64,000 bases of DNA, from positions 457,471-521,470 of the forward strand of contig JAJYMK010000003.1 of assembly GCA_021786945.1 (NCBI GenBank), written 5' to 3'. The notes below the pieces were generated by a model. That model saw nothing but the letters and a program-made list of their open reading frames with translations, did not search any database and was not told where the DNA came from. Shown here one piece after another: positions 16,255 through 56,325 of this stretch. How positions within the stretch are numbered: the stretch's first letter is position 1; every line of letters starts with the position of its first letter. The translations under genes and the position numbers were made by a program. The DNA comes from a bacterium (GTDB taxonomy: Bacteria; Patescibacteriota; Minisyncoccia; UBA6257; 02-FULL-45-10c).

Positions 16255-16717
16255 CTACCTGTTGAAGGTGGGGACTCTTTCCATCCTTTCGATGAGGTCT
16301 TTGTCGCTATGGTAAGAGCAGTAATTCTTGCCCATCACCACGTCGCCGAGTATCTCGCCGATCCGCAACTGCGGATTGTGCTTCAGCGCATGCTTCAGCA
16401 TTTTTGCGAACTTGGCGTTCTGGTCGACAGTCCTGATCTTGTTCTGCATGTCCTTCGGAAAACCGAAGGCCAGCATCAGATCGCCCACGCTCGGCTGCCC
16501 CTCCCCGTGAAACGCTCTCAAGTCCATAGCGAACTCGAGATCGGTTTTGTACGAGAAGCAGCCCTCCCCGCTCATGATCCAAAAGATCAGGTTTGCCCAA
16601 GAGGTCTTGGGATTGCGGCAAGCCGCATTCTCAAACGCCTCGGCAAACCGGGCCGAATCCTTGTTCGACCTGTTGCACTTCTGCTCGCCGTAGTAGTTCC
16701 TTCTCTGATTTTTCATA
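16255..16717 (-). CDS. hypothetical protein (154 aa) encoded by a visibly G+C-rich segment
   Basis: Start set at ATG (MKNQRRNYYGEQK) preceded by AGGAGG; the ORF track's longer 16255-16824 version lacks an SD. Several overlapping ORFs on other frames/strands reflect high GC. No family recognised. Confidence 0.5.
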
Positions 16718-16924
16718 TCGTTCCTCCTGGAATTTTCACTGAAACATGCCGAAAACCAATATGCCGACACCCATAACAATCCGGATGGCGGTATCCAATA
16801 ACTCATTAAGCTTATCCGAAGCAATATTCATAAATAAATCCCCTTTTATTAAATTTTCAATGTAATTTTACTATATTAACACAAAAATTGATTTTTGACA
16901 AGTACTAATAAAAATACCCAATTA

Positions 16925-18352
16925 TTATAAAATAAACGACTTCAGCTCAATAAATTTAGCGCTTAACAAACTTTGATTATTTGCCTCCAGATTCAATCTT
17001 AGTAAATTTTCGGAATTAGAAAATCTCAGGCTAAACCACCACTTCCCATCAACGGAATCAAATTCCATTAACAATCCGTCTGTTTCAATTATTTTTTGAG
17101 CCGATTTTTTATAAAAATTTTTTAATCTGACTAATTTTTTCTCAAAAATTTTTTTATCTTTTATTTCAAAATTAGTTTCTTCAATCTGATAATATCGCGG
17201 GAGTACGTCCAAGTATTCAGAAAAATTATTTTTTAACTTAACCACAAAGTTGATTATTTCCAAAGCAGCCAAAATACCACTGTCGCAATAAAAAAACTTT
17301 TTGAAGTAATAATGTCCCGATCGCTCCATTCCCAAATTCGCTTTTTTATTCCTCATCATTTCCTTCATAAACAAATGGCCGACTTTCGATACAAAAGTAC
17401 CTCTTATATTTTTTACGCGACTGCTACTAATAGTAGAAACAACAAATGGCGGTTTATTTTTATTCGTTAATATAAAACCAACAGCGTCCGGATCAACTTG
17501 TCTTCCTAGATTATCCATAAAAAACACCCTGTCTCCGTCTCCGTCAAAAATAATTCCCAAATCGGCTTTTTGTTTTACAACAACTTCCTTAAGCCTATCC
17601 AAAGATCCCGCAACAAGCGGATTGGGGCTATGAGCCGGAAAATTTCCGTTTGGTTTTTCGTTCAAAAAAACAGCGGTTATCTTTTTATTGCTCTTAAATA
17701 AATTTTTCAACACCATTCCCGTTGTCCCACTTGAACAATCAACGACGATTTTAAGCTTTCGTGAAACCTTAAGATGTTTTTTTAAAAAACTTGCATATAC
17801 TTTTAAAGAATAGGGCGCTGGCTTATTTAAAAACTTTGTAGCCAAATGAGCATGTCGACTAAACCTAACTTTTTGAAATGAGTGTGATGAAAAACCAGTA
17901 AGTGAATTGGCTGTAATAAGCGAAGCGGCCTGGGAAGATACAAAAACCTTATTCATAACTTCCCGTCCGCTTATCGGTATCGCCCCCCTCCCCATTATTT
18001 TTAGACCATTGTATTCCTTGGGATTATGCGACGCAGTAACAATTATCCCACCGTCTGCCTTAAATTTATTGACCAAAAAATAAATCTCCGGAGTAGTAGC
18101 CAATCCGGCTTCGATTATTTTTATTTTTTTAAAAGACTTTCCTGGTTGGATTTCTTTTAATGCGGCTAAAACTGATTTATATAATTCCGGAGAACTTAGG
18201 CGCGCATCGTGCCCTACAACGATGTTTTTTTTAAAAATCGCGCTAATTCCGGAAACAATCTTAAAAACAACTTGTTTGTTTATCTCCAAAGGATATATAC
18301 CTCTTATATCATTTGCCTTAAAAATATTTTTATCCAAAAAAATAGGCTCCAT
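16925..18352 (-). CDS. phosphoglucomutase/phosphomannomutase (alpha-D-phosphohexomutase)
   Basis: active-site serine loop GGIIVTASHNPKEYNGLK, metal-binding FDGDGDR, 475 aa four-domain layout. Confidence 0.85.
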   Translation of the reverse strand: MEPIFLDKNIFKANDIRGIYPLEINKQVVFKIVSGISAIFKKNIVVGHDARLSSPELYKSVLAALKEIQPGKSFKKIKIIEAGLATTPEIYFLVNKFKADGGIIVTASHNPKEYNGLKIMGRGAIPISGREVMNKVFVSSQAASLITANSLTGFSSHSFQKVRFSRHAHLATKFLNKPAPYSLKVYASFLKKHLKVSRKLKIVVDCSSGTTGMVLKNLFKSNKKITAVFLNEKPNGNFPAHSPNPLVAGSLDRLKEVVVKQKADLGIIFDGDGDRVFFMDNLGRQVDPDAVGFILTNKNKPPFVVSTISSSRVKNIRGTFVSKVGHLFMKEMMRNKKANLGMERSGHYYFKKFFYCDSGILAALEIINFVVKLKNNFSEYLDVLPRYYQIEETNFEIKDKKIFEKKLVRLKNFYKKSAQKIIETDGLLMEFDSVDGKWWFSLRFSNSENLLRLNLEANNQSLLSAKFIELKSFIL

Positions 18353-18410
18353 CTTGCAATTAATTATATCACTGCTAGGATGTTTTTAGGACCTTAAAGG
18401 AGGAAACTCT

Positions 18411-19013
18411 ATGAAATTCGAAAACCTTTCTGTAAAAGAAGTGGCCAGGGTAATGTCCCCGCTTTTAAAAAGAAACTTCCGGGAATGGAAGAATCTTAAA
18501 AAGCAGGTAATGCTCAAAAGCAAAATAAGTTTTTGCGACAAAGACGACGAAAAAATAGAAAAGCTTCTTTCGTCTGAACCCATGGCGCTGTTCTATGCTC
18601 ACTGGCTTAAATTCGAAAACCTGCAGGACGGCAAAGAAAAACTCGAAGAAAAAATAATCAGCTACATCAAGGGTTTATTCGGCAAAGAACTGAAAGATGA
18701 AAAAAGCGTTGAAAGACTTTATTCAAAATGCAGCTTGATAGCGGGTGTCAGCCGCATAAAAACAATCAAAATGATAGAAGCGGCTGTGGCTATGCAAGAT
18801 CTGATGAATAAGGACTTTCGGGAAATATTCGAAAATAAAAACGCCTACAAAGTAATCATTAAAAGCGCTTTAAAGGCCGAGGACTGGAAACTTTCTCAGT
18901 CTATTTTACTAGGGTGGATATCCCACTTCGAAATAGATCAGGAAAACGTCCTGGATTTCTACCGCATAAGCAACGTAATCATAGAAAAAAGAGAAAAAGA
19001 AATTTTCTCCTAA
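18411..19013 (+). CDS. hypothetical protein (200 aa)
   Basis: ORF with AAAGGAGG SD; terminator hairpin at 19023-19048; no family recognised. Confidence 0.5.
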   Translation: MKFENLSVKEVARVMSPLLKRNFREWKNLKKQVMLKSKISFCDKDDEKIEKLLSSEPMALFYAHWLKFENLQDGKEKLEEKIISYIKGLFGKELKDEKSVERLYSKCSLIAGVSRIKTIKMIEAAVAMQDLMNKDFREIFENKNAYKVIIKSALKAEDWKLSQSILLGWISHFEIDQENVLDFYRISNVIIEKREKEIFS

Positions 19014-19020
19014 AAAAACA

Positions 19021-19055
19021 ATCCCCTTGCTCAACCGAGCAGGGGGATTTTTATC
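19021..19055 (+). terminator. intrinsic terminator
   Basis: 10-bp stem CCCCTTGCTC/GAGCAGGGGG with AACC loop followed by ATTTTTAT. Confidence 0.7.
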
Positions 19056-19158
19056 TAACACATAAATTACGTGTGGGATTTATTCACCTCACCATATATT
19101 AAAATATGCAAATTTTTGTTAAAATAAGTTTAATTTAATATTTATTTAGAGAAGCTAT

Positions 19159-26006: not shown

Positions 26007-26408
26007 ATGAAATTTCAAATAAAAAAAATAAATACTTCCAGAAAAAATCTACTGAGAGTGTGCGGCTATAAAGAAATTCAAAATCCATACAAAGAAAATG
26101 AAATTAGTTATGCGAGATCCTTGGAAGCCAGCAGATTTTATCCTCGCTTTCATATATACATAGAAGAAATTGCCGATTCAGAAGGTATTCAGCTAAACCT
26201 TCACTTGGATATGAAAAAACCAATTTATAAAGGAACTACTGCTCACAGCGGAGAATACGAAGGAGAGCTGGTTGAACGCGAAGCACAAAGAATAAAAAAT
26301 ATAGCCGATAAATTTATTTCGGAAAGTACCCCCCAATACCAAAGCCTCGGATTCAAAAAAGAAAAATCCGGATTTTGGAAAAAAATACTGGATTTTCTAC
26401 AGCCATAA
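26007..26408 (+). CDS. hypothetical protein (133 aa)
   Basis: ORF only; no family recognised. Confidence 0.4.
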   Translation: MKFQIKKINTSRKNLLRVCGYKEIQNPYKENEISYARSLEASRFYPRFHIYIEEIADSEGIQLNLHLDMKKPIYKGTTAHSGEYEGELVEREAQRIKNIADKFISESTPQYQSLGFKKEKSGFWKKILDFLQP

Positions 26409-26414
26409 TTTCCC

Positions 26415-26443
26415 TTGACATTTTTTTAAAAAAACAGTATATT
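26415..26443 (+). promoter_or_regulatory. near-consensus sigma70-type promoter TTGACA-17-TATATT
   Basis: TTGACA at 26415-26420, 17-nt spacer, TATATT at 26438-26443; drives the structured RNA candidate. Confidence 0.6.
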
Positions 26444-26449
26444 ATTTAA

Positions 26450-26794
26450 CAGTACATTGCTAAGGGAATGTTTAATGTTGTAAACCTCCTCGGTTAGAGG
26501 TTCTCGGCCTGTACCGGCCTTCTATGCGAAGCGCCGCAGATCGCAGCAACCCTCCTTTCCTTCCCTAAAAGTTGGAAGAGGAGGCCACCTGTCATCAACC
26601 AAACTACCTATCCGGTTGGCCCGGAAAGGGTCTAAACAGCCAGGGCTCACTCTTAAAATAGTAATAAGATTGGGGTTGGCGGCCCCTCCGAAGCTCCCGC
26701 TAGAGAGTTTTGGACACGAGCCCGCAAAAAACAAAAAAACAAAGCGAAAGAATCAGGGCCCCGCACTTACACGTGCGGGGCCCATTATTTTTTT
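26450..26794 (+). ncRNA. structured ncRNA candidate; SRP RNA (ffs)-like, long form
   Basis: Between consensus promoter and strong terminator (GGCCCCGCAC-TTACAC-GTGCGGGGCC + T-run, 26757-26794). Locally G+C-rich. 26613-26645 GGUUGGCCCGGAAAGGGUCUAAACAGCCAGGGC resembles SRP RNA helix 8 (E. coli GGUCCGGAAGGAAGCAGCCAAGG). No tRNA-like 3' end or RNase P P4 motif. Confidence 0.4.
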
Positions 26795-26875
26795 AATAGG
26801 CGTTGACTAATTTACCAATAAATCCTAGGTTAAGATTAGGAACTTAAAAAATAACCTATTCTAAAAGGAGGAATT

Positions 26876-27613
26876 ATGGCGCCGGAATGTGCTGTGGTGT
26901 TTGATTTCGATGGCACCCTCACGCCTAAATTCCACGTATCTCTTTTTAACGTCGTGGAAAAGGGTGTGCTCTCGGAAAAATATCTGCAAGAAACCGCAAT
27001 CCTGCGGAATAAGTACCTGCCAAAAGCAATGAGCGGCACTATTACACACAAAGAAGAAGCTGCCTGGCTCAGTGAAAATATAAATATTTTTATTAAAGCC
27101 GGCACAACCATAGACCAAGTAAAATATGCGCTAAAAGATGTGAGGCTAAGAATCAATGTCGTTGATTGCATGGCCCTGCTGAAATATAAACGCATACCAA
27201 TGGCTGTTATTTCTTACGGAGTCTATCAATTTATAGAAATCGTACTAAAAAACAACCATGCCTTGCCGCTTATAAATTCTATCTATGCCACAAAGCTTGA
27301 GGTAGACAAAGAAACCGGTAAAATTATCGGCTTCAATCCCGCAACAGTTCTTTTGCCAACACAAAAAGGCACTGCTTCGTTGCACTTCGCGAAATCCGTA
27401 AGAGTTGCGGAAAATAAAATACTTGCCGTTGGAGATTCACTGGTAGATTCCCTACTCGGCAGTCTCAAGGAAAACCGCTTCGGAATAGCCGAAGACGAAA
27501 CTCAATTAAAAAGAATACAAAATGTTATGGGCGAATGCGCAATTACCCAGGACTTTTCTCCGGTAATTAACTGGCTCATAAGAAAAATAGAAAATAAACA
27601 AGCCCCGCTTTAA
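26876..27613 (+). CDS. HAD-superfamily hydrolase
   Basis: motif I VVFDFDGTLT (DxDxT), later GDSLVDS (motif IV-like); AAAGGAGG SD. Confidence 0.7.
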   Translation: MAPECAVVFDFDGTLTPKFHVSLFNVVEKGVLSEKYLQETAILRNKYLPKAMSGTITHKEEAAWLSENINIFIKAGTTIDQVKYALKDVRLRINVVDCMALLKYKRIPMAVISYGVYQFIEIVLKNNHALPLINSIYATKLEVDKETGKIIGFNPATVLLPTQKGTASLHFAKSVRVAENKILAVGDSLVDSLLGSLKENRFGIAEDETQLKRIQNVMGECAITQDFSPVINWLIRKIENKQAPL

Positions 27614-27630
27614 AGCGGGGCTTTTCTTAT
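27598..27630 (+). terminator. intrinsic terminator
   Basis: hairpin AAGCCCCGC-TTTAAA-GCGGGGCTT followed by TTCTTATTATTT. Confidence 0.7.
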
Positions 27631-27641
27631 TATTTATTTTT

Positions 27642-28547
27642 TTATCCCCTAGTCAAATAAACCTTGATAAAACTGCTCTTTAGATCTGCCGCTTCCTTTG
27701 AAAGTGAAGCGCTGTCGCCATTTTTTGCCGAAATTAAAATAACTTCCAAATTTTTCCTTATATTTTGAATATCAGAGTCATTAATTACACCCTCAACCAA
27801 TTTAAGGGCCGAGTCCGCTTCCGGGTAAACAGCGATTATTCCATCGGAATCTTTATTGTCGGCGGCTGTAATAATTTTTTCCATAATATCGTGAAAATCA
27901 ACAAGGTAAACAGAAAGCATGGAAAAATTATTTCTTTTTAAAATATCCTGAAAAATCGGCCGGATAGCTTCCAGACCAGTATGGGCAACTGTCAAATCCC
28001 CGGTATAAATCACGTCTTTAAGATCGGATGATATTTTGCCAACTCGTAAAACATCTGCATTAAATTGACCGTCACCCGAAATTACAAATGGATGATAATT
28101 TAAATACTTACCGGAAAAATTTCTGTATTCAACTATAAATTTATCATAATTTTCTATAGCCTCCGGTCTTTTGGCTTGTCCGGTCTGAAAAAGTGCTTGT
28201 TTATAATATTGATTCATTGCCGCATAATTTTCCAAAAATATTTTCTTGGTAAAAAAATCACTATAATAAATTCCGATAAAAGGAATAATTAAAATAAGCA
28301 CGATAAATATAATTTTAACTTTTCGGGAAATTACTTTTTCGGAATTCTTATTTGTCGAAAAATTTAAAATTTTATATAGACCACAGAATCCGGTTATGCC
28401 GGTAACCAAAGCCACCAAAGAAAGGACGTAAAAAATAATTTGTAAAACCCCTCCAAACCAAAATAAACCGGCAATTAAAAACAACTCAGCTAAAATAATT
28501 CTTATAAATCTATCAATATCATTCTCATTTTTAACTATTTTAAACAT
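27642..28547 (-). CDS. membrane protein with N-terminal DUF2892-like domain
   Basis: VTGITGFCGLYKILNFST matches DUF2892/YgaP-like TM motif (GxxGxCPLYxLLG); C-terminal domain unknown. Confidence 0.45.
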   Translation of the reverse strand: MFKIVKNENDIDRFIRIILAELFLIAGLFWFGGVLQIIFYVLSLVALVTGITGFCGLYKILNFSTNKNSEKVISRKVKIIFIVLILIIPFIGIYYSDFFTKKIFLENYAAMNQYYKQALFQTGQAKRPEAIENYDKFIVEYRNFSGKYLNYHPFVISGDGQFNADVLRVGKISSDLKDVIYTGDLTVAHTGLEAIRPIFQDILKRNNFSMLSVYLVDFHDIMEKIITAADNKDSDGIIAVYPEADSALKLVEGVINDSDIQNIRKNLEVILISAKNGDSASLSKEAADLKSSFIKVYLTRG

Positions 28548-47619: not shown

Positions 47620-48939
47620 TTAATTTTTTCTTAAAATATTTTTCAATTCTTCCAAATTATTTTCAATAAACAACGCTTTCTTTTGTTTGTTAATTATTTC
47701 CTTTAATTTTCCGGGAATTTCAATTTTTTTGCCAATTATCGGTTCAATGGCGTCTTTGAATTTTACGGGATGCGCAGTACTTAAAGAAATAATCACGTCG
47801 TCGATACCACTTTCTTGAGCAGCCTTAACAGCTACAGCGCTATGTGTATCCAATAAATATCCGACTTTTTCATAAACATTCCCGATTGTACGGGAAGTTT
47901 CTTCCTCAGTCACACTTATCCCTATAATGTCTTTTACCATTAATTTAGCGTTATTTTCGTATAAATCCAGCATCCTGGCAAAGTTAGAGGGATTACCCAC
48001 ATCCATTGAATTAGACATGGTTTTTTGCGAAGGACGAGGCTTATATACACCAGTATGGAGGTATTCCGGGACTACATCATTTATATTGGTAGCGGCAATA
48101 AACATACCTATTGGCAAGCCAATTCTTTTAGCTATAAGCCCGGCTGTTAAATTGCCGAAGTTGCCACTGGGAACACAAAAATTTACATCTTTAATTCCCT
48201 TTTTAACCAATTGGGCGAAACCAAAAATATAATAAAACATCTGTGGCAAAAGACGTCCAAAATTTATGGAGTTAGCCGAAGAAAATTCACCTTTTCCATT
48301 CAGTTCTTTATCACCCAAAATCTGCTTGGCTAATTTTTGGCAATCATCGAAAGCGCCATTTACCTCTACTGCGGTGATATTTCCGCCAAACGTCGTAAGC
48401 TGCTTTTCCTGAAGATCACTCACCTTTCCTGACGGATATAAAATATAAACTTTTATATTCGGCACATTATAAAAACCTGCGGCCACAGCGCTTCCTGTAT
48501 CTCCAGATGTGGCAACGATTATTTTCAATTCTTTTTTAGTTTGTCTTAAAAAATAACCCATCGCCCGAGACATAAATCTAGCGCCGAAATCCTTAAAAGC
48601 CATTGTCGGACCATGCCAAAGTTCTTCAACGTAAATATTATCACTGATTTTAACCAAGGGAGCCGGAAATCCTTCGCCGCAATCAATAAAAGCATCTGGA
48701 CTAAAAGCATCGTCAATTATTTCTTTCAAATCTTTTTCAGGAATATCATCAATAAATAATTTTCCGACTTCCAGGGCTATCTCGCCAAAGCTTTTGTTTG
48801 CCAAATCAGCCAAAAATTTATTATTCAAAGACGGAAAATTTTCGGGCATATACAATCCACCGTCCGGAGCCAAACCCTCGAAAAGGACGTCTTTAAACTT
48901 TTTGCCCTTTATTTGTTTATTAGTACTGTAATAATACAT
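47620..48939 (-). CDS. thrC: threonine synthase
   Basis: PLP-lysine motif region …HGPTMAFKDFGARF…, fold-type II PLP enzyme length/pattern of ThrC. Confidence 0.8.
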   Translation of the reverse strand: MYYYSTNKQIKGKKFKDVLFEGLAPDGGLYMPENFPSLNNKFLADLANKSFGEIALEVGKLFIDDIPEKDLKEIIDDAFSPDAFIDCGEGFPAPLVKISDNIYVEELWHGPTMAFKDFGARFMSRAMGYFLRQTKKELKIIVATSGDTGSAVAAGFYNVPNIKVYILYPSGKVSDLQEKQLTTFGGNITAVEVNGAFDDCQKLAKQILGDKELNGKGEFSSANSINFGRLLPQMFYYIFGFAQLVKKGIKDVNFCVPSGNFGNLTAGLIAKRIGLPIGMFIAATNINDVVPEYLHTGVYKPRPSQKTMSNSMDVGNPSNFARMLDLYENNAKLMVKDIIGISVTEEETSRTIGNVYEKVGYLLDTHSAVAVKAAQESGIDDVIISLSTAHPVKFKDAIEPIIGKKIEIPGKLKEIINKQKKALFIENNLEELKNILRKN

Positions 48940-48971
48940 ATACTTAATGATACTTTAACTGAAATAAAAAA

Positions 48972-49000
48972 AAAGCTCGCATGTTTATACGCGAGCTTTT
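48972..49000 (-). terminator. intrinsic terminator for 49012-49266
   Basis: AAAGCTCGC-ATGTTTATAC-GCGAGCTTT. Confidence 0.6.
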
Positions 49001-49011
49001 ATATTGTTTTT

Positions 49012-49266
49012 TTAAGGATTCACTTGAATCCCCCCTCCTGTTCTTATGCCAATATTACCATTTGTATCCACCCCCATAGATCCAGACTTCATTATGGTAA
49101 TGCCGACCGAAATATGGTCTTTTTTAGAACCACCCCTCTTCGAACAAGAACCGTTCTTTTTGTATTCAGCTAAGTTATAGCTGGTAAATATCATACCCAG
49201 AATAACCCCGCAGAACAAAACGACGAAGACAGCACCAATCTTCCAATCAGCTTTCCAATTCATCAT
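49012..49266 (-). CDS. hypothetical small membrane-anchored protein (84 aa)
   Basis: N-terminal TM helix, Gly-rich C-terminus. Confidence 0.4.
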   Translation of the reverse strand: MMNWKADWKIGAVFVVLFCGVILGMIFTSYNLAEYKKNGSCSKRGGSKKDHISVGITIMKSGSMGVDTNGNIGIRTGGGIQVNP

Positions 49267-49339
49267 ATCTTTTTCCCCTTTTTAGATTTTCAAAAATTCT
49301 AACATTTATAATACCACAAAAAATACTATTTGTCTAGGC

Positions 49340-49852
49340 CTAATAAATCAGTTTGATTATCTGTTCCACTAATTCCTCCTCGATTAAATTATCGGCTTTT
49401 ATAATATAATCCGCAAATTTTCTGTAAGCCGCGTCCCTTTCTTCAAAAAGCTTTTTCAATCCTTTTTCTTTCAGCCCAACTATACCACCCTTAATCGGCC
49501 TAAGCCCAAGTCTTATCTCGATTTCTTTTAGCGGAAGTTCTATATAAATAATTTTGGTCTCCCTTGCCACTTTTTCCATGGCTTCCACGGAATAAATAAG
49601 GCTTCCTCCCGGAGAAAAAATAATATCCGAATCCTCAAAATCTATTTCCAAGGTATATTGATTTTCCAAATTCAACAATTCTTTTTCTCCTTGTTTTTCC
49701 AGAATTTCATCATAACTTTTTCCAGTTTTTTCTTTTATCAAATCATCCAGATCAATAAAATCCCAGCCCAATTTATCAGCCACTAATTTTCCGATAGTAG
49801 ACTTCCCCGAAGTCGGCATCCCTATTAAAGTTATAGATTTTTTTTCTTTCAT
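49340..49852 (-). CDS. aroK: shikimate kinase
   Basis: Walker A ITLIGMPTSGKSTIGK, ~170 aa, AroK-like. Confidence 0.8.
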   Translation of the reverse strand: MKEKKSITLIGMPTSGKSTIGKLVADKLGWDFIDLDDLIKEKTGKSYDEILEKQGEKELLNLENQYTLEIDFEDSDIIFSPGGSLIYSVEAMEKVARETKIIYIELPLKEIEIRLGLRPIKGGIVGLKEKGLKKLFEERDAAYRKFADYIIKADNLIEEELVEQIIKLIY

Positions 49853-49940
49853 TAAGTTTATTATTTTCTAAATTTTATCATTTCCTCAAGCCGTTTCGCT
49901 CATCCCAGCGGATTCACTCACTAGTTCCTCGCCTCGCTCG

Positions 49941-50075
49941 TTCTATATACTAAATTGTCGTGGAGAAGATTCGGAGCTCCGACATGCTTGGTTCCGATGT
50001 CGGAGTGAGACTCAGGAGTTGTTCCGCGCCGGACGGAACAAACTCCGATTCTCGTAGACAATTTAGTATATAGAA
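49941..50075. repeat. MITE-like hairpin-rich repeat element, copy A (~135 bp, perfect 19-bp terminal inverted repeats)
   Basis: TIR TTCTATATACTAAATTGTC / GACAATTTAGTATATAGAA; internal hairpins CTCCGACATGCTTGGTTCCGATGTCGGAG and GGAGTTGTTCCG...CGGAACAAACTCC; core ~95% identical to reverse complement of 63490-63604. Confidence 0.7.
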
Positions 50076-50128
50076 CACCTTGCCCGCTCGGCTGAGCAGC
50101 TTTCGGAAAAAGATAAGATTTAGAAAAA

Positions 50129-51211
50129 TTATAAGATATATCCCTTTTTATATAATAACTCAGCTGTCAAAATAGCGCCTCCGGCTGCACCTCTTATGGT
50201 ATTGTGCGACAAAGCCACAAATTTCCAATCAAATGCAAAATCCTCACGGAATCTGCCACAAGTAATACCCATTCCTCTTCCGTAATCCCTATCCAATTTA
50301 GTTTGTGGCCTGTTCTCTTCGGCAAAATAATAAATAAACTTTTCAGGCGAAGACGGCAAACCTAATCCCGCCAAAGGATTTTTAAAATTATTTATTGAGT
50401 CAAGAATTTGCCTTAACGACGGCTTCTTTTTGAATTTAACCGCCACGCTAGCCATATGTCCATCGGAACAAGCAACTCTTATACAAGTAGCTGAAATATT
50501 TATATTTTTTGCAGGTACAATCTTTTTGCCCTTTATAGATCCCAAAATTTTCAATGGTTCTTTTTCAGTTTTTTCTTCTTCTCCGCCTATAAACGGGATG
50601 CAATTGTCCACCATTTCCGGCCAGGATTCAAAAGTTTTTCCGGCTCCGGAAATAGCCTGCAAAGTAGTCACCGAAACAGTTTTTGGGCCAAACTTTTTCA
50701 AGGCATGAATTATGGGTAAATACGACTGGAGGGAGCAATTCGGCTTTACAACTAACAAACCATTTTTCCAGCCCCGATTTTTTCTCTGAATATCTATAAT
50801 ATCCAAGTGGTCGCAATTCAACTCCGGCATAATCATAGGCACGTCATCCGTCCATCTGTGAGCGGAATTATTGGAAACCACCGCCACGCCAGCGGCAGCA
50901 TATCGCTCCTCAACTTCTTTGATTTTTTGCTTATCTAAATCTATTGCTGAAAAAACCAAATCAACGCTTTTTACGATCTCATCAAAATCTTCTTCAACAG
51001 CCTTAATAATTATATTTTTTACGTTTTCGGGAATAGCAGTTTTCATATTCCACCTTCCATTCATTACCTCTCCATATTTTTTCCCGGCTGACTGCGGCGA
51101 TGCGGCAACAACCACAACATTAAACCATGGGTGATTTTCCAAAAGAGAAATAAATCTCTGTCCGACCATTCCCGTAGCTCCTAAAATACCCACATTTATT
51201 TTTTTATTCAT
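50129..51211 (-). CDS. asd: aspartate-semialdehyde dehydrogenase
   Basis: N-terminal VGILGATGMVGQRF NAD(P)-binding, active-site Cys region NCSLQ, 360 aa. Confidence 0.85.
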   Translation of the reverse strand: MNKKINVGILGATGMVGQRFISLLENHPWFNVVVVAASPQSAGKKYGEVMNGRWNMKTAIPENVKNIIIKAVEEDFDEIVKSVDLVFSAIDLDKQKIKEVEERYAAAGVAVVSNNSAHRWTDDVPMIMPELNCDHLDIIDIQRKNRGWKNGLLVVKPNCSLQSYLPIIHALKKFGPKTVSVTTLQAISGAGKTFESWPEMVDNCIPFIGGEEEKTEKEPLKILGSIKGKKIVPAKNINISATCIRVACSDGHMASVAVKFKKKPSLRQILDSINNFKNPLAGLGLPSSPEKFIYYFAEENRPQTKLDRDYGRGMGITCGRFREDFAFDWKFVALSHNTIRGAAGGAILTAELLYKKGYIL

Positions 51212-51223
51212 ATTTTTATTAAT

Positions 51224-53665
51224 TTATATTTTCAAAATATCAGCCAATACTCCGCCCGCCGTAACATCCGCTCCGGCACCCGGCCCTTGCACAACCAACG
51301 GTCTTTCTTTATATCTCTTACTGTAAAAAGCGAAAATATTGTCCGCGCCGCGGGTAGAAGCCAACGGATTATCTTTGGACACCATCTCCAATTTTGCCGA
51401 CGCCTCGCTCTTCTGAATCTTAGCCACATACCTCAAAACACAGCCAATTTTTTCGGCTTTTTCGGAAAGTTTTCTGAATTGAGAATCAAACTTCTTTAAC
51501 TCGGACATAAACACTTCCACGTCTTTTATTTTTCGTAATTTTTCCGGAACCAGGCTTTCTATTTTTATATCCTTAAAATCCAATTCCAAGCCGATTTCCC
51601 TGGCCAATATAAGCAGTTTTCTGCCTACATCCTGGCCGCTCAAATCTTCACGCGGATCCGGCTCGGTATAACCCAATTTTCTCGCCTTAGCCACAATTTC
51701 ACTGAAAGACACGCCGCTGCCAAAATTATTAAAAATATAGCTGAGTGTTCCCGAAAATATACCCTCGATTCTTTCTATTTTATCTCCGCTAGCAATCAAA
51801 TCCCTTAAAGTCGAGATAACCGGCAAAGCGGCGCCCACATTAGTTTCATAAAAAAACTTCTTTCTATTGCCGGCCAAAACATCCCTAAGTTTTTTATAAT
51901 CTTTCATTGGCGAAACATTGAATTTTTTATTGGGAGAAACAATACTGAAACCAGCTTCGGCAATTTTAATATATTTTTTGGAAATAAATTCGCTGGCCGT
52001 GCAATCGACAAAAACCTTATTGGCAAAATTAAATTTTTGCGCGTCATCAATCCATTTATCAAAATTTGCCGCTTCTCCTCCTTTTTCCATAATCTTTTTC
52101 CAATTTTTCAAATCAATTCCCCGTTCATTGAGTAGCATTTTTTTATCGTTGATGATTCCACAAACACGGAGAGCTCCGCCGAGTTCATAAATTTGTCCGA
52201 GTAATGTTCCGCCAATATTTCCGGTTCCAACTAAAAATATATTTTTTAAACCACCAAAAACAAACTGATCATGGATAAGATTTAATGCTTTTATTTTATC
52301 TTTACCTTCCACCGTCAAAGAAATATTTCTTTCCGATCCGCCTTGGGCAATAGCGGTAACACTTATTTTGCTGTCTCCCAATGCTTTGAATAATTTTCCC
52401 GAGATACCCGGTGTTCCGCGCATATTATCGCCGACAATGGCGATAATTGCCTGATTAGAAATAAAGCTCAAATTAACCGATTTATTTCCTATTTCTTTTT
52501 TAAATTCCTGTTTTAAAGAATCCAGAGCTGCTTCCAATTCGGACGTTTTAATAGCCAGACAAATAGTGTGCTCAGAAGACGCCTGGGAAATCAAAATAAC
52601 ATTGGCTTTGGCGCGCCTAGTGGCGTCAAAAACTCTGGCTGCGCTTCCGGGAATACCTATCAAACTGACTCCGCCGACAATCACCAGTGAAATATCGTCT
52701 ATAGAAGTAATTCCTTTCACCAAAGAAACTCCGTGATCGGGATTTTTAAGCACAAACGTACCTACAGCTGCTGGATTAAACGTATTTTTTATGACAATAG
52801 GAATTCCCTTTTTAACAGCCGGCAACATAGTGGCGGGATGGATAACTTTAGCTCCGAAATAAGCCAATTCTACAGCCTCCTCATAGCTCACCTCTTTCAA
52901 AACAACGGCATTTTTTACCAATTTAGGATCGGCGCTTAAAATTCCGTCTACATCCGTCCAAATCTCAACAATTTTGACGCTCAAAGCCGCACCGAAAATA
53001 GCAGCCGAATAATCGGAACCGCCTCTTCCCAAAGTCGTAGTTTCGTTATTTTTCGTTGAACCCAAAAAACCGGTAATCACGGGGATTCCCTGTTTATCTT
53101 TAAAATATTTTTTTATGATTTTATTTGTTTCCGAAAAATCCACCGTCGCATTCACAAAATTATCATCCGTTTTCACCAATTCTCTGGCATCGACAAAATA
53201 ACTTTTTTTGGAAAGCCCGTCCTTAATATATCCCGACACTATAAAAGCCGAGAATCTTTCTCCGAAGCTGGCCACCAAATCTAGTTGTTTGGAAGAAGCT
53301 TCTTTTTTGGAAAATATTTTCTCTAAAACTTCGCTTAATTCTCCAATTAGCTTTTCAACGTATTCAAAGGCAATTGCCTGATTATTTTTGGATTTTATCA
53401 ATTTTTTAATTGATTCTATATGGCGCTTTTTTATTAACCCAACCTCATCTTTATATTTTATGTCTCCAGCCGCAGCAAATTTAGCCGACTTCAAAAGCTG
53501 ATCGGTAATTCCCTGAAAAGCCGAAACCACCATAGCGACTCCATCCCCTCGATTATGCTCGGGGCAAGCTTTTTTTGCTGCATCAACTACTATTTTAGAC
53601 GCCTTCTTAATCATTTCCGGAGTACCTACCGACGAACCTCCAAATTTTAATATTTTCGTAATCAT
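51224..53665 (-). CDS. thrA: bifunctional aspartokinase / homoserine dehydrogenase
   Basis: N-terminal aspartokinase (KFGGSSVG…), central ACT region, C-terminal homoserine dehydrogenase (LVGTGNIGGTLL… NAD-binding); 813 aa. Confidence 0.85.
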   Translation of the reverse strand: MITKILKFGGSSVGTPEMIKKASKIVVDAAKKACPEHNRGDGVAMVVSAFQGITDQLLKSAKFAAAGDIKYKDEVGLIKKRHIESIKKLIKSKNNQAIAFEYVEKLIGELSEVLEKIFSKKEASSKQLDLVASFGERFSAFIVSGYIKDGLSKKSYFVDARELVKTDDNFVNATVDFSETNKIIKKYFKDKQGIPVITGFLGSTKNNETTTLGRGGSDYSAAIFGAALSVKIVEIWTDVDGILSADPKLVKNAVVLKEVSYEEAVELAYFGAKVIHPATMLPAVKKGIPIVIKNTFNPAAVGTFVLKNPDHGVSLVKGITSIDDISLVIVGGVSLIGIPGSAARVFDATRRAKANVILISQASSEHTICLAIKTSELEAALDSLKQEFKKEIGNKSVNLSFISNQAIIAIVGDNMRGTPGISGKLFKALGDSKISVTAIAQGGSERNISLTVEGKDKIKALNLIHDQFVFGGLKNIFLVGTGNIGGTLLGQIYELGGALRVCGIINDKKMLLNERGIDLKNWKKIMEKGGEAANFDKWIDDAQKFNFANKVFVDCTASEFISKKYIKIAEAGFSIVSPNKKFNVSPMKDYKKLRDVLAGNRKKFFYETNVGAALPVISTLRDLIASGDKIERIEGIFSGTLSYIFNNFGSGVSFSEIVAKARKLGYTEPDPREDLSGQDVGRKLLILAREIGLELDFKDIKIESLVPEKLRKIKDVEVFMSELKKFDSQFRKLSEKAEKIGCVLRYVAKIQKSEASAKLEMVSKDNPLASTRGADNIFAFYSKRYKERPLVVQGPGAGADVTAGGVLADILKI

Positions 53666-53861
53666 TTTTATTTATTAATAATTATTTTTCCAAAAAAATT
53701 CCCAGCTCTTAAGCCGGGGTTAGTTTATTTTTATACAATTCAACTAAGACCTCGGCTAAGGGCTTGTGGTAGTAGTTGTAGTTGTAAAAACGACTTTATT
53801 CATTACTTCTTTATCATAACAACCGTCAATTTTTAGTCAAAGCCGGAAAAGGTGAATAAAA

Positions 53862-53905
53862 ATCCCCCTGTTCATAACAGAACAAGGGGATGTTTTTTTT
53901 TACTT
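53862..53905. terminator. bidirectional intrinsic terminator
   Basis: ATCCCCCTGTTC-ATAACAG-AACAAGGGGAT with flanking A5 and T9. Confidence 0.7.
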
Positions 53906-54532
53906 CCTGAAAGGAAGCACGCCATCGATAAGGCCGTAAGCTTTCGCTTCTTCGGCGGACATATAGAGGTTCCTCTCCATGTCCTTCTGGACCTTTTCGA
54001 AGGTCTGGCCGCAATGCTTAGCGATGATCTCGGTAAGCACCTTCTTGTTGAGCTGCATTTCCTTGGCCTCGATTTCGATGTCCGTTGCCTGACCGGAAAT
54101 GCCGCCGCCCATTATCAGGGGCTGGTGGATCATGATACGGGAGTTTGGCAGCGCGAAACGCTTACCTTTTGTTCCCGACGCCAGGATCACCGCACCGAAG
54201 CTCATCGCCATCCCCATACACACGGTAGAGACAGGGCTCTTGATGAACTGCATAGCATCGTAAACAGCCAAGCCGGCCGTTACCATGCCGCCGGGCGAAT
54301 TTATGTAAAGGCAGATATCTTTGGAATCATCTTGTGAATCCAAGTACAGCATCTGCGCGATCAGTGAATTCGCTGACTCGGTAGTGAACTCGCCTTCGTA
54401 ACCACCCACAAAGATAATGCGGTCGGTTAAAAGACGGGAGTAGATATCGTAAGCCCTTTCCACGCCAGCCACCTTCCCGATGACAGTCGGGATAACGCTG
54501 ACGGCTTTTATCACGCCACGTTCCTTTTTCAT
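53900..54532 (-). CDS. clpP: ATP-dependent Clp protease proteolytic subunit (G+C-rich paralog)
   Basis: [11 protein letters not shown]…[15 protein letters not shown], catalytic Ser in GMAMSFG, His in MIHQP; strong AAGGAGGAAGG SD; coding sequence visibly G+C-richer than the adjacent clpP. Confidence 0.85.
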
Positions 54533-54619
54533 AATCCTTCCTCCTTACCAAGAATTTCTGAATCGAACTTAATTTTCAAGCTCCTAATTTAAACCTAAAT
54601 TAAAAATAAAACTCCGTCA

Positions 54620-54652
54620 ATAATAAAAGACCTCTGTTATATAGAGGTCTTT
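54620..54652 (-). terminator. intrinsic terminator between the two clpP genes
   Basis: GAAAGACCTCT-ATATAACA-GAGGTCTTT + TATT on minus strand. Confidence 0.6.
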
Positions 54653-54660
54653 CAAAAAAA

Positions 54661-55263
54661 TTATTTTTTAACTTTTATTATCTCGTCCACTAAACCATAT
54701 TCTTTTGCTTCCTGCGGACTAAGCCAATAATCTCTGTCTGTATCTTTTTGTATTTTACTCAAAGATTGACCCGTGTGTTTAGCTAGAATCTGATTAAGCT
54801 GTTCTCTCATCCTCAAAATATGCTTTGCACTGATTTCGATCTCGGTAGCTTGGCCGCCGATTCCCTCGCTCATCACCTGATGGATCAAAACTTCGGAATT
54901 CGGAAGTATAAATCTTTTTCCTTTAGCTCCCGCGGCCAGAAGTACGGCGCCCATAGAAGCCGATATTCCTACACCAATGGTAGAAACATCACACTTCACA
55001 TGCTGCATAGTATCATAAATAGCCAATCCCGCACTCACGGAACCGCCCGGAGAATTTATATAAAGCTTAATGTCTTTTTTGGGATCCTCGTGTTCCAAAA
55101 AAAGCAGCTGGGCAATAATTGTATTCGCCATACCATCACTTACAGGACCGCCCAAGAATATTATCCTCTCCTTTAAAAGGCGAGAATAAATATCGTAAGC
55201 CCTCTCACCCATAGAACTTTTTTCAATAACTGTCGGGATTAAATATTCATTTTTTTCATTCAT
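54661..55263 (-). CDS. clpP: ATP-dependent Clp protease proteolytic subunit (genome-typical A+T-rich paralog)
   Basis: [28 protein letters not shown], Ser in GISASMG, His in LIHQV; 200 aa. Confidence 0.9.
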
Positions 55264-55458
55264 ACCAGGTCAGTAGAAATTCAATAATAATTATTTATAT
55301 TGCGACTTAAATTAAATTTATATATTTATTACCAAACAATGATTTAATTCAATACCATGGTCGCTTCGCGACCCAATTGAATTTTCACTGCCTGGCATAT
55401 ACATAATTATAACTAATTTTCACAAAATATTAATACCCGACACGGCCATAGTCAATAG

Positions 55459-55487
55459 TTGACATTTTGACCTAAAAATTTTAGTTT
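55459..55487 (+). promoter_or_regulatory. candidate promoter TTGACA-17-TAGTTT overlapping palindrome GTCAATAGTTGAC
   Basis: -35 consensus hexamer; -10 weak; perfect 13-bp palindrome 55451-55463 overlaps -35. Confidence 0.35.
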
Positions 55488-55542
55488 GTAGATAGTTTAA
55501 AGCTCTTTAAAAAAGCTACCCAAGCTAACAGGAGGATATGGT

Positions 55543-56127
55543 ATGGAAAGCAAAATAAAAGTTGTTCTGGAAGGCATCGGCCGCGGCCTCCTCATGCATA
55601 AATTTTGCATCGAGGCTTACGAAAACCAGGTAAAGAAGAACAAAGCCAAGCCTTCGCCTGAAGAAGAGGCGGAAAGAGTGGCTTATCGCCTGGCGCCCGA
55701 AAAAGAATCCGAAAAAGGACAGCTCTGCCTTCCGGCCGAGCACTTCATAGGATCTCTTATCTCGGCGGGAGCTGGCTTCAAGCAAGTCGGCGGCGGCAAG
55801 AAAACCTACAAAAGCGTACTCACCGGCAATCTGGATATCTGCCCAGAAAACGTGGGCCTCACGGACGCGAAAGGCACTCCGCTGAAGGACTACAAAATAG
55901 ACAGTCGCCCGGTATGTATCAGGGCAACTAAAGGCCGGATTATCCGCCACCGCCCGCTTATAGAAGTAGGCTGGCGCGCGGAATTCACATTAGTACTCTC
56001 GGACGATTCGGTTCCGCTAGAGGTAATCAAGGCGGTTCTCGAAGAAGCCGGTAAAAGCAAATGCGTCGGCGATTTTCGCCCGCGCTTCGGCCAGTTCCGA
56101 GTTATTTCCGTGGACAAAATTCAGTAA
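55543..56127 (+). CDS. hypothetical protein (194 aa) on a G+C-rich segment
   Basis: AGGAGG SD 7 nt upstream of ATG; no family recognised; followed by (NNGGT)n array and terminator. Confidence 0.55.
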   Translation: MESKIKVVLEGIGRGLLMHKFCIEAYENQVKKNKAKPSPEEEAERVAYRLAPEKESEKGQLCLPAEHFIGSLISAGAGFKQVGGGKKTYKSVLTGNLDICPENVGLTDAKGTPLKDYKIDSRPVCIRATKGRIIRHRPLIEVGWRAEFTLVLSDDSVPLEVIKAVLEEAGKSKCVGDFRPRFGQFRVISVDKIQ

Positions 56128-56156
56128 ATCAAGATTGCCTTCGCTCCACTTTACAT

Positions 56157-56282
56157 GAGGTATGGTAAGGTGAGGTGCGGTTAGGTGAGGTGTGGAATAC
56201 TCAAACCTAAATTGCTTTGACGTACCAAGGTCTGGTGCGGCGAGGTGAGGTGAGGTTTGGTAAGGTTGGGTAGGGTGTGGTA
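56157..56282 (+). repeat. period-5 (NNGGT)n pentanucleotide repeat array in two blocks (7 + 11 units)
   Basis: Block 1: at-GGT aa-GGT ga-GGT gc-GGT ta-GGT ga-GGT gt-GG (56157-56195). Block 2: aa-GGT ct-GGT gc-GGC ga-GGT ga-GGT ga-GGT tt-GGT aa-GGT tg-GGT ag-GGT gt-GGT (56227-56282). Contains >=7 AGGTG (Shine-Dalgarno-like) cores. Confidence 0.8.
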
Positions 56283-56286
56283 AAAC

Positions 56287-56325
56287 AAAAGCCCTCCGGT
56301 GAAAATCGGAGGGCTTTCTTTTTTA
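56287..56325. terminator. bidirectional intrinsic terminator
   Basis: AAAGCCCTCCG-GTGAAAAT-CGGAGGGCTTT + T-run; between convergent 55543-56127(+) and tig(-). Confidence 0.75.

Follow-up and report, generated by a model that had tools for sequence, protein, structure and literature searches.

Shine-Dalgarno-led genes with G+C-rich third codon positions form an apparent class in an A+T-rich CPR chromosome

For genes that depart in base composition from their chromosome, the frame of comparison is given by the amelioration model of Lawrence and Ochman, in which GC3 reportedly decays first, and by the codon-position rules of Muto and Osawa. Phage morons are defined by their layout of promoter, Shine-Dalgarno sequence (SD), gene and terminator, and paired ClpP1/ClpP2 paralogs are found in, for example, Mycobacterium, Listeria and Chlamydia. 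SD-poor lineages such as Bacteroidetes, in which a minority of genes does carry an SD, are described in PMC7797042, and experiments give precedent for translation-level selection on genic G+C (PMC5774297, PMC4478552). The window, the whole 64-kb stretch analysed here, has 37.8% G+C and comes from a CPR-type genome (Patescibacteria), a possibility that an earlier note on this DNA had raised. The best explanation of its G+C-rich islands, to which we give an even chance, is that they belong to one distinct class of SD-led genes that has long been resident and in which G and C are retained at synonymous sites, probably by RNA-level selection.

That the islands are richer in G+C than their flanks, as the earlier note had it, is borne out. 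Seven listed island ORFs have 48–60% G+C as compared to 36% in 52 native genes (GC 0.359, sd 0.037; GC3 0.325, sd 0.054, maximum 0.468), and the 500-nt flanks have 0.28–0.39, except where two islands adjoin; the excess is limited by the ORF boundaries. Island values were computed in the correct reading frames, and z(GC3), taken relative to the native genes, is +4.3 to +10.7 (+2.0 in the marginal I4), while z(GC1) is only −0.3 to +1.7 (+3.2 in I7). GC1, GC2 and amino-acid usage (FYMINK/GARP fractions) are host-like, C and G are both raised at third positions, where nearly all of the excess is found, and in I1, I3, I5a and I5b the excess is found at position 3 alone (GC1 0.42–0.47). The spurious overlapping ORFs that had been noticed on other frames are present, and are to be expected from the high GC3.

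I1 (16255–16716, minus strand; GC 0.54, GC3 0.79, z +8.5, GC1 0.46) encodes a 153-aa orphan and starts at 16716, not 16717. It has an AGGAGG SD, a terminator hairpin at about 16220–16250 and a promoter-like site at about 16870–16901, and a direct reading gives, with low confidence, a possible 31-codon upstream ORF in its leader (16736–16831, minus strand). I2 (29304–29561, minus strand; GC 0.48, GC3 0.56, z +4.3) encodes an 85-aa XRE/HTH_3 regulator with a AGGAGGAG SD and a shared, bidirectional terminator at 29267–29295; together with EamA (29636–30055) it is missing from the orthologous slot of the relative L005. The list of islands was incomplete. Outside the range covered earlier, a 117-aa orphan is found at 149–502 (plus strand; GC3 0.61, GC1 0.42; AAGGAGG SD, terminator at about 520–550). 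At 26445–26795 (plus strand) there is a non-coding G+C-rich unit with a promoter-like site, a strong terminator and about 340 nt without an ORF on the plus strand. The latter matched no family in an Rfam search and is kept in L005, with blocks of about 70 nt that are 100% identical.

The islands I3, I4 and I5a–c are interleaved with a tRNA cluster (31632–35954), the order of which is conserved in L005, and the content of its slots varies between genomes. The tRNAs are tRNA-His (31632–31704), tRNA-Phe (32494–32568), tRNA-Arg (33158–33230), tRNA-Pro (33354–33425) and tRNA-Gly (35883–35954). I3, between the first two (31809–32354, minus strand; GC 0.49, GC3 0.60, z +5.2), encodes a 181-aa Cys-cluster protein from a family of 172 representatives, with a GAGGAGG SD and a terminator at 31769–31794. 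I4, between tRNA-Phe and tRNA-Arg (32669–33049, minus strand; GC 0.45, GC3 0.43, z +2.0), encodes a 126-aa 2-TM protein with an AGGAGG SD and a terminator at 32629–32653, and is, like I5c, a marginal island by G+C. The stretch 33567–34495, earlier taken as one segment, is two genes, with a third, weak one after them. I5a (33567–33920, plus strand; GC 0.60, GC3 0.91, z +10.7, GC1 0.42) encodes a 117-aa small alpha/beta protein and has a promoter-like site at 33467–33494 and a GAGGAG SD; its 108-aa paralog I5b (34169–34495, plus strand, 36% aa identity; GC 0.54, GC3 0.77, z +8.2) has a promoter-like site at 34084–34111 and an AGGAG SD. I5c (34869–35123, plus strand; GC3 0.47) encodes an 84-aa acidic orphan, with a perfect TTGACA-16-TATAAT at 34756–34783 and a terminator at 35179–35205.

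Each island is an autonomous monocistronic unit: a promoter-like site and a strong SD precede the gene, and a hairpin terminator follows it. The earlier claim of an own SD and terminator per single-gene unit held in 9/9 units: a strong SD is found upstream of 9/9 islands as compared to 2/52 native genes (p=3e-9), these two having the highest native GC3 values, and a hairpin followed by T residues is found downstream of all nine. The SD is kept in 12/15 island orthologs and never found at ClpP1 or tig. Among 193 ORFs from 11 CPR loci, the median dGC3 is +0.154 for genes with an SD and −0.004 for those without (p=1.7e-8).

It is conceivable that such islands are assembly chimeras with a co-binned organism rich in G+C, or that non-coding RNAs were mistaken for ORFs. 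The spurious ORFs, the disagreement of gene callers on the strand at the I5 locus and the unit at 26445–26795, which does appear non-coding, would fit this. However, window positions 47931–60532 and 26304–32561 match, at 100% identity, contigs from independent assemblies of six other runs or samples, and in related genomes from further samples these slots hold the same G+C-rich genes, which excludes chimerism at the island boundaries. Substitutions are concentrated at codon position 3, protein motifs are conserved, AlphaFold gives confident models (pLDDT 91 and 81), and no Rfam family reaches its gathering score in any island. An artefact has next to no chance of being the explanation, and for the nine coding units it stands refuted.

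The earlier note suggested repeated single-gene acquisition from a high-G+C donor, for instance an actinobacterial host, and on this account the islands would not yet have ameliorated. Their atypical composition and self-contained expression signals are in favour, as is the variable presence of I7 and I2 among relatives, and in one case a foreign origin is well supported. I6, or ClpP2 (53900–54532, minus strand, 210 aa; GC 0.52, GC3 0.67, z +6.4; AGGAGG SD, own terminator at 53862–53891), is 75% identical to ClpPs of Elusimicrobiota, with which it clusters, as compared to 55% to the adjacent native ClpP1 (54661–55263, minus strand; GC3 0.37, own terminator, no SD). Its GC1/GC2/GC3 of 0.517/0.374/0.673 matches the 0.515/0.376/0.609 of a clpP from an Elusimicrobiota genome with 50% G+C, and the donor-like Elusimicrobiota genes use SDs. 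ClpP2 is an old import from an Elusimicrobiota-like lineage of roughly 50% G+C, and not from Actinobacteria. ClpP2 is the only island with a traceable foreign origin; the search for donor taxa led from I7, I5 and I1 to CPR contexts or unnamed metagenomes only, and none of the named matches is actinobacterial.

As a general explanation such import is largely refuted, and we consider it very unlikely. A GC3 of 0.77–0.91 implies a donor with 65–73% G+C and a GC1 near 0.67–0.72, but GC1, GC2 and amino acids are host-like, which is the reverse of amelioration. The I5 family has 10 members among 5.8 billion proteins, the named or placed ones only in this CPR clade. Most islands have orthologs in the same slots of L005 and L010 (core 73–79% nt identity), L011–L013 and L020, and their fourfold sites have diverged about as much as those of core genes since the splits; I3 is 91% identical in amino acids to its L005 ortholog, with nucleotide differences of 0.07/0.03/0.30 at codon positions 1/2/3. 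Among relatives of I1 and I5 at 36–62% protein identity, GC3 is still 0.69–0.91: 0.69–0.70 within AT-rich flanks in the I1 relatives L016–L018 (55–62% aa identity), and 0.77–0.91, with GC1 0.42–0.45, in all four I5 genes (36–56%). Along the L010 branch, which drifts towards AT, S>W changes per ancestral S site were lower in ClpP2 and I7 (26/169=0.154) than in five neighbours (159/459=0.346; Fisher p=1.7e-6), where import predicts them equal or higher. On the window branch, W>S is 0.207 in ClpP2 and I7 as compared to 0.127 in the neighbours (p=0.018), and the implied equilibrium GC3 is 0.46–0.62 as compared to 0.20–0.47, all by parsimony at near-saturated sites and for these two island genes only. 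High GC3 thus appears to be maintained and not decaying, and a state that is both old and apparently maintained is not what a fresh import would leave.

Another possibility is that the islands are moron-like cassettes moving among CPR bacteria and phages, their alleles replaced again and again at the same locus from a G+C-richer pool and never equilibrating. The unit layout agrees with this, and so does I7. This gene (55543–56127, plus strand; GC 0.52, GC3 0.59, z +4.9; AGGAGG SD, terminator at 56288–56317) encodes a 194-aa solitary Cas7/Csm3-like RAMP, matches phrog_4652 (1e-12), and has distant homologs in many phages; close relatives have it whole, have it in fragments or lack it, and it perhaps arrived by phage. 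Its GC3 is above that of its neighbours in 10/10 genomes sampled, whose hosts range from 35% to 50% G+C. I1 adjoins GIY-YIG and IVP/Avd-like genes, and the variable tRNA-cluster slots also fit. Named relatives of I7 are from CPR, apart from one MAG labelled Gammaproteobacteria, which may be misbinned since the neighbours there are A+T-rich and SD-less like CPR loci; this counts against cellular import. Against cassettes, synteny and ortholog divergence roughly follow the species, a search of 2.9 million viral contigs gave no close relative of I7, I1 or I5a, I3 had no phage match, and neither a prophage context nor an adjacent integrase nor flanking repeats were found at the islands. Re-import also leaves native-like amino acids at a GC3 of 0.9 unexplained, and a source pool of such composition is not known. 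We regard cassettes as a doubtful explanation.

GC-biased gene conversion at recombination hot spots could likewise push third positions to G/C, and would account for C and G both rising at synonymous sites and for W>S being elevated and S>W reduced. It would also suit the 145-nt structured 3′ element that follows I5a and ends in its terminator (33928–34072, plus strand; fold z −6.0). This is 99% identical to the copy with terminator that follows I5b (34570–34714, plus strand); both are near-invariant in L005, and lineage-specific changes are common to both copies, a clear case of concerted evolution. The I5 ORFs themselves are nevertheless not homogenised, the G+C excess ends at the ORFs, and conversion predicts neither excess folding relative to codon shuffles nor a tight link to SDs. 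To our knowledge, reported bacterial effects are far smaller than a shift in GC3 from 0.33 to 0.9, and we find this explanation quite improbable.

Predicted folding bears on the remaining explanation, that of an SD-led class. Against synonymous-codon shuffles the islands have a mean mRNA fold z of −2.7, as compared to −0.87 in 49 native segments (p=0.004), and the excess persists under local-block shuffles; in I1 it is −5.5 with global and −4.1 with block shuffles. In five lineages ClpP2 gave −3.2, −4.9, −2.4, −1.8 and −6.0; for ClpP1 the values are −0.8 to +0.3, and for the Elusimicrobiota clpP +1.2. Some native genes are over-folded too (z down to −5.7), several island orthologs are weakly negative, I2 is not over-folded (+0.5), no specific conserved fold was found for the ClpP2 mRNA (RNAalifold covariation term +2.2), SD accessibility is inconsistent, and ortholog replicates are not independent of one another, all of which counts against this explanation. 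On the favoured explanation, about ten small self-contained genes, each with its own strong SD, sigma-70-like promoter and terminator hairpin, are long-resident accessory genes of this CPR clade, among ordinary genes that are rich in A+T and hardly ever carry an SD. ClpP2 came from a mid-G+C Elusimicrobiota-like bacterium and I7 perhaps by phage, and the others may be native. Regardless of the route, their synonymous sites would be actively held G/C-rich, most likely by RNA-level selection for compact, stable mRNAs, for which the SD would supply the initiation that folded mRNAs need; this may amount to a separate expression mode.

The islands resemble ameliorating acquired genes in being far from host G+C with their own expression signals, and ClpP2 fits that model, but I1, I3 and I5 deviate at position 3 alone, with native GC1 and GC2, and are syntenic over deep divergence, and synonymous rates point to maintenance and not to decay. 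As in phage morons, each unit has a single gene, a promoter-like site, SD and terminator of its own and a composition unlike its neighbours, and I7 has phage homologs; unlike morons, the islands are found among chromosomal housekeeping genes and tRNAs, and most keep their place from species to species. I7 is solitary, with 10–18% sequence identity to the Cas7/Csm3 RAMP subunits of type III/IV/VII CRISPR effectors, and no CRISPR array or cas genes were found in the window or the homolog contexts examined. The two adjacent clpP genes, each by inspection with a plausible Ser-His-Asp triad, recall paired ClpP1/ClpP2 systems, but the second copy here is a compositionally distinct xenolog related to the ClpP of Elusimicrobiota, and is apparently transcribed on its own. 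As in the Bacteroidetes of PMC7797042, most genes have no SD and a small set has a strong one, which suggests a separate initiation mode; compared with the minority described there, the set here is also GC3-rich, over-folded by prediction and monocistronic. Synonymous G+C favoured beyond mutational input is shared with translation-level selection (PMC5774297, PMC4478552), a genome-wide tendency demonstrated by experiment in E. coli and G+C-rich species, but the effect here is specific to a gene class and extreme, GC3 reaching 0.91 where the genome has 38% G+C.

Genes visibly G+C-richer than their A+T-rich surroundings, as claimed in the earlier note, were found when the segments were read in their correct frames. 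The G+C content of the whole window is 37.8%, and the 52 native genes have a mean GC of 0.359 (sd 0.037) and a mean GC3, the G+C at third codon positions, of 0.325 (sd 0.054, maximum 0.468). Measured against these genes, the islands reach a z(GC) of +2.3 to +6.4 and a z(GC3) of +2.0 to +10.7. The most extreme is I5a (33567-33920, + strand; GC 0.60, GC3 0.91, z(GC3) +10.7), followed by I1 (16255-16716, - strand; 0.54, 0.79, +8.5), I5b (34169-34495, + strand; 0.54, 0.77, +8.2), I6, which encodes the second ClpP, ClpP2 (53900-54532, - strand; 0.52, 0.67, +6.4), the Cys-cluster protein I3 (31809-32354, - strand; 0.49, 0.60, +5.2), I7 (55543-56127, + strand; 0.52, 0.59, +4.9) and the XRE gene I2 (29304-29561, - strand; 0.48, 0.56, +4.3). 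The 2-TM protein gene I4 (32669-33049, - strand; 0.45, 0.43, +2.0) is a marginal island, and I5c (34869-35123), located 3' of I5b, is a weak ninth unit. A tenth member of the class lies outside the range of the earlier note, at 149-502 on the + strand, and is a 117-aa orphan with a GC3 of 0.61, a GC1 of 0.42, the Shine-Dalgarno (SD) sequence AAGGAGG and a hairpin terminator at ~520-550. The 500-nt flanks of the islands have a G+C content of 0.28-0.39, except where another island adjoins.

In I1, I3, I5a, I5b and ClpP2 the G+C surplus is almost entirely found at codon position 3. The z values for GC1 in these genes are -0.3 to +1.7, and their FYMINK and GARP amino-acid fractions are inside the native range. 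From the Muto-Osawa and Lawrence-Ochman regressions, a donor with a GC3 of 0.77-0.91 would have a G+C content of 65-73% and a GC1 of about 0.67-0.72, and in an ameliorating import GC3 is expected to decay first. The GC1 observed in I1, I5a and I5b is 0.42-0.46, as compared to the ~0.67-0.72 predicted from their GC3 of 0.77-0.91. The codon-position pattern of these three genes is the reverse of that of an ameliorating import, and for most islands the G+C excess is confined to synonymous sites. ClpP2 is the only island where GC1, GC2 and GC3 are jointly consistent with a donor.

The islands are real protein-coding genes. Between I3 orthologs the frequencies of difference are 0.07, 0.03 and 0.30 at codon positions 1, 2 and 3, the I5 paralogs have 36-56% amino-acid identity with conserved motifs in common, and the AlphaFold models are of good confidence, with a pLDDT of 91 for I7 and 81 for I5a. 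The spurious ORFs reported to overlap the islands are present, and they are to be expected because the islands avoid NNA codons. Overlapping antisense coding was rejected, as the length of the antisense ORF varies between genomes (207 as compared to 116 aa for I3). Rfam at gathering score returned tRNAs alone in the whole window and no family in any island, and E-value scans of 33400-35300 and 26380-26900 gave sub-threshold terminator-like noise and nothing else. The islands are not assembly chimeras: the ClpP2/I7 region (47931-60532) matches, at 100% identity, one contig from ENA and three from Logan that stem from different runs, and the region with I2 and I3 (26304-32561) is 100% identical in three further assemblies. 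The window sits in a contig of 696,638 bp, and its placement in Patescibacteria (CPR) comes from cluster look-ups and named homologs.

The surroundings of the islands are housekeeping genes (tig, clpP, PNPase, AK-HSD, PGM and tRNAs). The five units I3, I4 and I5a-c are interspersed among five tRNA genes, ClpP2 is directly downstream of ClpP1, whose composition is native, and I7 lies in the opposite orientation, with tig on one side and clpP1 on the other. I1 has a PGM/PMM gene on one side and small GIY-YIG, 23S-rRNA-IVP-like and RNase-H-like genes on the other. In this stretch beside I1 (14692-16170) it was possible to observe an Avd-like four-helix 23S-rRNA-IVP gene, a gene like RNase-H-like 3'-5' exonucleases and a stand-alone GIY-YIG nuclease gene of 94 aa; no reverse transcriptase was identified near I1 among the window ORFs scanned. 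Self-comparison of the window reported no repeats flanking the islands, and no integrase adjoins them, the sole integrase-family gene identified being XerC/D-like (62527-63450). Two 126-nt repeats lie in inverted orientation (49949-50074 and 63480-63605, 94% identical); whichever strand is read, each copy folds as a long palindromic hairpin (z -6 to -7), and the element looks like a MITE or REP-type element. On the - strand at 6529-13500, an ORF of 2323 aa has an unusually high GC2 and several internal repeats that have diverged to 70-84% identity, each ~150-200 nt long; it is probably a giant repetitive surface protein.

Comparison with related genomes shows that most of the islands are old. 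The relative JGI Ga0209016_1000063, represented by loci L005 and L010, has 35-36% G+C and a core nucleotide identity of 73-79% to the window, and it carries the same array of tRNA-Gly, I5c, two I5 paralogs, tRNA-Pro, tRNA-Arg, I4, tRNA-Phe, I3 and tRNA-His, with G+C peaks that coincide in place. The block tig-(I7)-clpP1-clpP2-AK/HSD is kept in loci L010-L013 and L020 of related genomes, and in all five genomes compared ClpP2 has a GC3 0.15-0.30 above that of the neighbouring genes. At fourfold sites ClpP2 is as diverged as the core genes (identity 0.45 as compared to 0.32-0.50). All four I5 genes have a GC3 of 0.77-0.91. Relatives of I1 (55-62% identity) have a GC3 of 0.69-0.70 within A+T-rich flanks, and one of them adjoins the same RNase-H-like and IVP-like neighbours. 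Synteny in relatives is seen for I1, I3, I4, I5 and ClpP2. L010, L011 and L020 have I7; in L012 it is broken into two ORFs of 63 and 74 aa (8724-9155), and it is absent from L013, where tig abuts clpP1 (5479-5489), which implies that I7 is a dispensable insertion. I2 and the adjacent EamA gene (29304-30055) are missing from the orthologous slot in L005 (14290-14412). Some units therefore come and go. A possible alternative source of the islands is a mobile gene pool, richer in G+C and so far unseen, from which they would be imported repeatedly. The tRNA cluster of the L005 genome also carries two genes that the window lacks, one for a Na/Ca exchanger and one that is Rce1-like (GC3 0.47, with SD).

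Horizontal acquisition from a high-G+C donor, which the earlier note had proposed for the islands with an actinobacterial host as a speculative source, holds in part for one gene. ClpP2 has 75% identity to Elusimicrobiota ClpPs and 55% to ClpP1, and in a neighbour-joining tree it clusters with the Elusimicrobiota group. Its GC1/2/3 of 0.517/0.374/0.673 is close to the 0.515/0.376/0.609 of a clpP from an Elusimicrobiota groundwater genome of 50% G+C, a gene that carries an SD and sits after tig. Identity, clustering and matching composition together imply that ClpP2, a canonical ClpP by its domain scores (PF00574, 253.9 bits, cut-off 20.2; NF001368, 285.5 bits, cut-off 249), is an old xenolog from a donor of intermediate G+C content. 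A recent high-G+C donor is opposed by the host-like GC1, the age and the synonymous maintenance of the islands, and no homolog search gave any actinobacterial signal.

The named relatives of I7 are CPR (Paceibacterota, Moraniibacteriota and Zambryskiibacteriota). One more is found in a MAG labelled Gammaproteobacteria, which may be misbinned since the neighbour genes are A+T-rich and SD-less like those of CPR loci. The GC3 of I7 is higher than that of its neighbours in ten of ten genomes, with host G+C contents from 35% to 50%. I7 has a match to phrog_4652, and distant homologs of it occur in phages, Felixounavirus among them; scans of viral contigs with I7, I1 and I5a gave no close relatives. 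In a set of 5.8 billion proteins, 10 belong to the I5 family, with the sole named member and the mapped contigs in this clade; named relatives of I5 and I1 are CPR. For I3, a deep search and cluster look-up gave 172 environmental relatives without taxonomy. PADLOC, NCBIfam, Pfam and PHROGs revealed no common functional theme among the islands, the matches being XRE, ClpP and phrog_4652 (I7).

Synonymous changes at third positions that separate the window from L010 were polarised with L011-L013 as outgroups (L011, L014 and L015 for I7), with ClpP2 and I7 as islands and five neighbours as natives, all handled identically. On the A+T-drifting L010 branch, changes from G/C to A/T per ancestral G/C site were 26/169 (0.154) in the islands as compared to 159/459 (0.346) in the natives (Fisher p 1.7e-6). 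On the window branch, changes from A/T to G/C per ancestral A/T site were 25/121 (0.207) in the islands and 171/1343 (0.127) in the natives (Fisher p 0.018). From these rates, GC3 would settle at an equilibrium of 0.46-0.62 in the islands and 0.20-0.47 in the natives. The counts, too, come from parsimony at near-saturated sites and from the two island genes that could be polarised. The contrasts in rate and equilibrium imply that the islands are under a different, G+C-favouring synonymous regime, and the test is conservative in one respect, because a composition-dependent bias in the ancestral states opposes the result.

GC-biased gene conversion is another possible explanation of such a regime, and conversion does occur at the I5 locus. 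A direct repeat of 145 nt, 99% identical (33928-34072 and 34570-34714, + strand), constitutes the 3' UTR and terminator of I5a and I5b. Its fold z is -6, and the related genome has a core of ~105 nt almost unchanged. The two ORFs upstream of the copies are only 36% identical. Five differences between the genomes are common to both copies within each genome, which implies concerted evolution.

Predicted folding energies were compared with synonymous-codon shuffles where protein, codon usage and GC3 were held constant. The fold z was -5.5 for I1, -3.2 for I5a and ClpP2, -2.5 for I3 and I7, -2.4 for I5b and +0.5 for the XRE gene, and 49 native segments had a mean of -0.87 (islands vs natives, Mann-Whitney p=0.004). 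The best-matched contrast is between ClpP2 and ClpP1 in the same five genomes, -3.2, -4.9, -2.4, -1.8 and -6.0 as compared to -0.8, +0.3, -0.1, -0.6 and +0.1; an Elusimicrobiota clpP equivalent to ClpP2 in composition had +1.2. G+C patchiness was rejected as the cause, as the effect persists under 25-codon block shuffles. RNAalifold of the five ClpP2 genes showed no net covariation for a specific fold, and pairing probabilities at the SD and AUG showed no consistent sequestration. For these reasons the predicted over-folding looks like a general compaction, and not like a defined structure.

At the level of motifs, each island is a single-gene expression unit with its own SD and terminator, as had been noted earlier. 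Consensus scans and inspection, which give motif matches and predicted units, placed a strong SD (AGGAGG, GAGGAGG, GAGGAG or AGGAG) at normal spacing in every island and a G+C hairpin followed by a T-run downstream; upstream there is usually a sigma-70-like site, in one case a perfect TTGACA-16-TATAAT. A 5-mer SD is found in 9 of 9 islands and 2 of 52 native genes (Fisher p=3e-9), or 6 of 52 when any alternative start within the first 40 codons is allowed. The native genes without any SD (48/52), among them ClpP1, trigger factor, HU and S15, have A/T-rich leaders, and ordinary genes in the other loci of the relatives likewise almost lack SDs. The two SD-bearing natives, a 200-aa orphan (18411-19013, + strand) and a HAD hydrolase (26876-27613, + strand), also have the two highest native GC3 values, 0.47 and 0.41, and may be intermediate members of the class. 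In other genomes a strong SD is kept in 12 of 15 island orthologs and never in ClpP1 or tig. In a set of 11 non-redundant CPR loci, where 193 ORFs were called mechanically, the median GC3 excess was +0.154 for SD-bearing genes as compared to -0.004 for the others (p=1.7e-8), where many of the replicates are orthologs of the same family and not fully independent.

It was also possible to observe a non-coding G+C-rich unit of ~340 nt (26445-26795, + strand) with a promoter-like TTGACA...TATATT site, a strong terminator and no ORF. Blocks of ~70 nt are 100% identical in the related genome, above coding-level conservation, so that the unit, of which two distinct sequences were to hand, has the features of a structured-RNA G+C island: no ORF, its own promoter and terminator, and conservation exceeding that of coding sequence. 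Rfam gave no family for it; by eye, some of its motifs resemble SRP RNA.

The explanation that best fits is that the islands are accessory genes of long residence with autonomous expression, that their synonymous sites are kept rich in G/C, and that they are SD-led in an otherwise SD-less genome. The most likely force, as proposed here, would be selection at the RNA level for stability or compaction, and an SD would then make up for folding around the start of translation. Translational selection of the ordinary kind is improbable, since HU, S15, tig, PNPase and the sigma factor have A+T-rich third positions and no SD. It is conceivable, if doubtful, that genomes of this CPR clade run two translation and mRNA regimes, an A+T-rich, SD-less bulk and a small regulon of monocistronic, SD-led, strongly folded, GC3-rich mRNAs (the second ClpP, a solitary Cas7-like RAMP, the XRE regulator and fast-evolving small proteins). 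Their synonymous composition would then be held by selection because the transcripts must be unusually stable or use a distinct ribosome state, for example in a dormant or host-attached phase.

Compositional islands are routinely taken as recent horizontal transfer, and for most genes here that reading fails. The signal is synonymous only, old and apparently actively maintained, and it goes together with SD-led in place of SD-less initiation and with over-folded mRNAs. Should the pattern extend to the whole genome, it would offer a clear natural example of selection on synonymous G+C that is specific to one class of genes, under A+T-biased drift. It would also point to a division of gene expression, so far unrecognised, in the uncultured and poorly understood CPR bacteria. 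The pattern also calls for caution when transfers are called from GC content, or donors inferred, in CPR genomes. The xenologous ClpP2, the solitary Cas7-like RAMP with its phage relatives and the tandem small proteins with their near-invariant 3' RNA element are worth experiments.

There is experimental precedent for translation-level selection on the G+C of genes (PMC5774297, PMC4478552), and a minority of SD-bearing genes in SD-poor genomes is already known from Bacteroidetes (PMC7797042). Literature searches yielded no account of such a combination in CPR and no work that deals with SD usage in the CPR group studied here. I7 is predicted to have the RRM-like fold of the Cas7/Csm3 RAMP proteins, but differs from them in not being part of a cas operon beside a CRISPR array; the window contains no CRISPR arrays, and the neighbours of I7 in the window and in L010-L015 no cas Pfam domains. 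Its invariant IDSRPV motif (D120) looks by eye like the catalytic loop of Csm3, but is found elsewhere in the sequence. The islands are not inside a phage or prophage genome but in housekeeping surroundings, and still they are similar to phage morons, as each appears from its motif matches to be an autonomous single-gene transcription unit with its own promoter and terminator.
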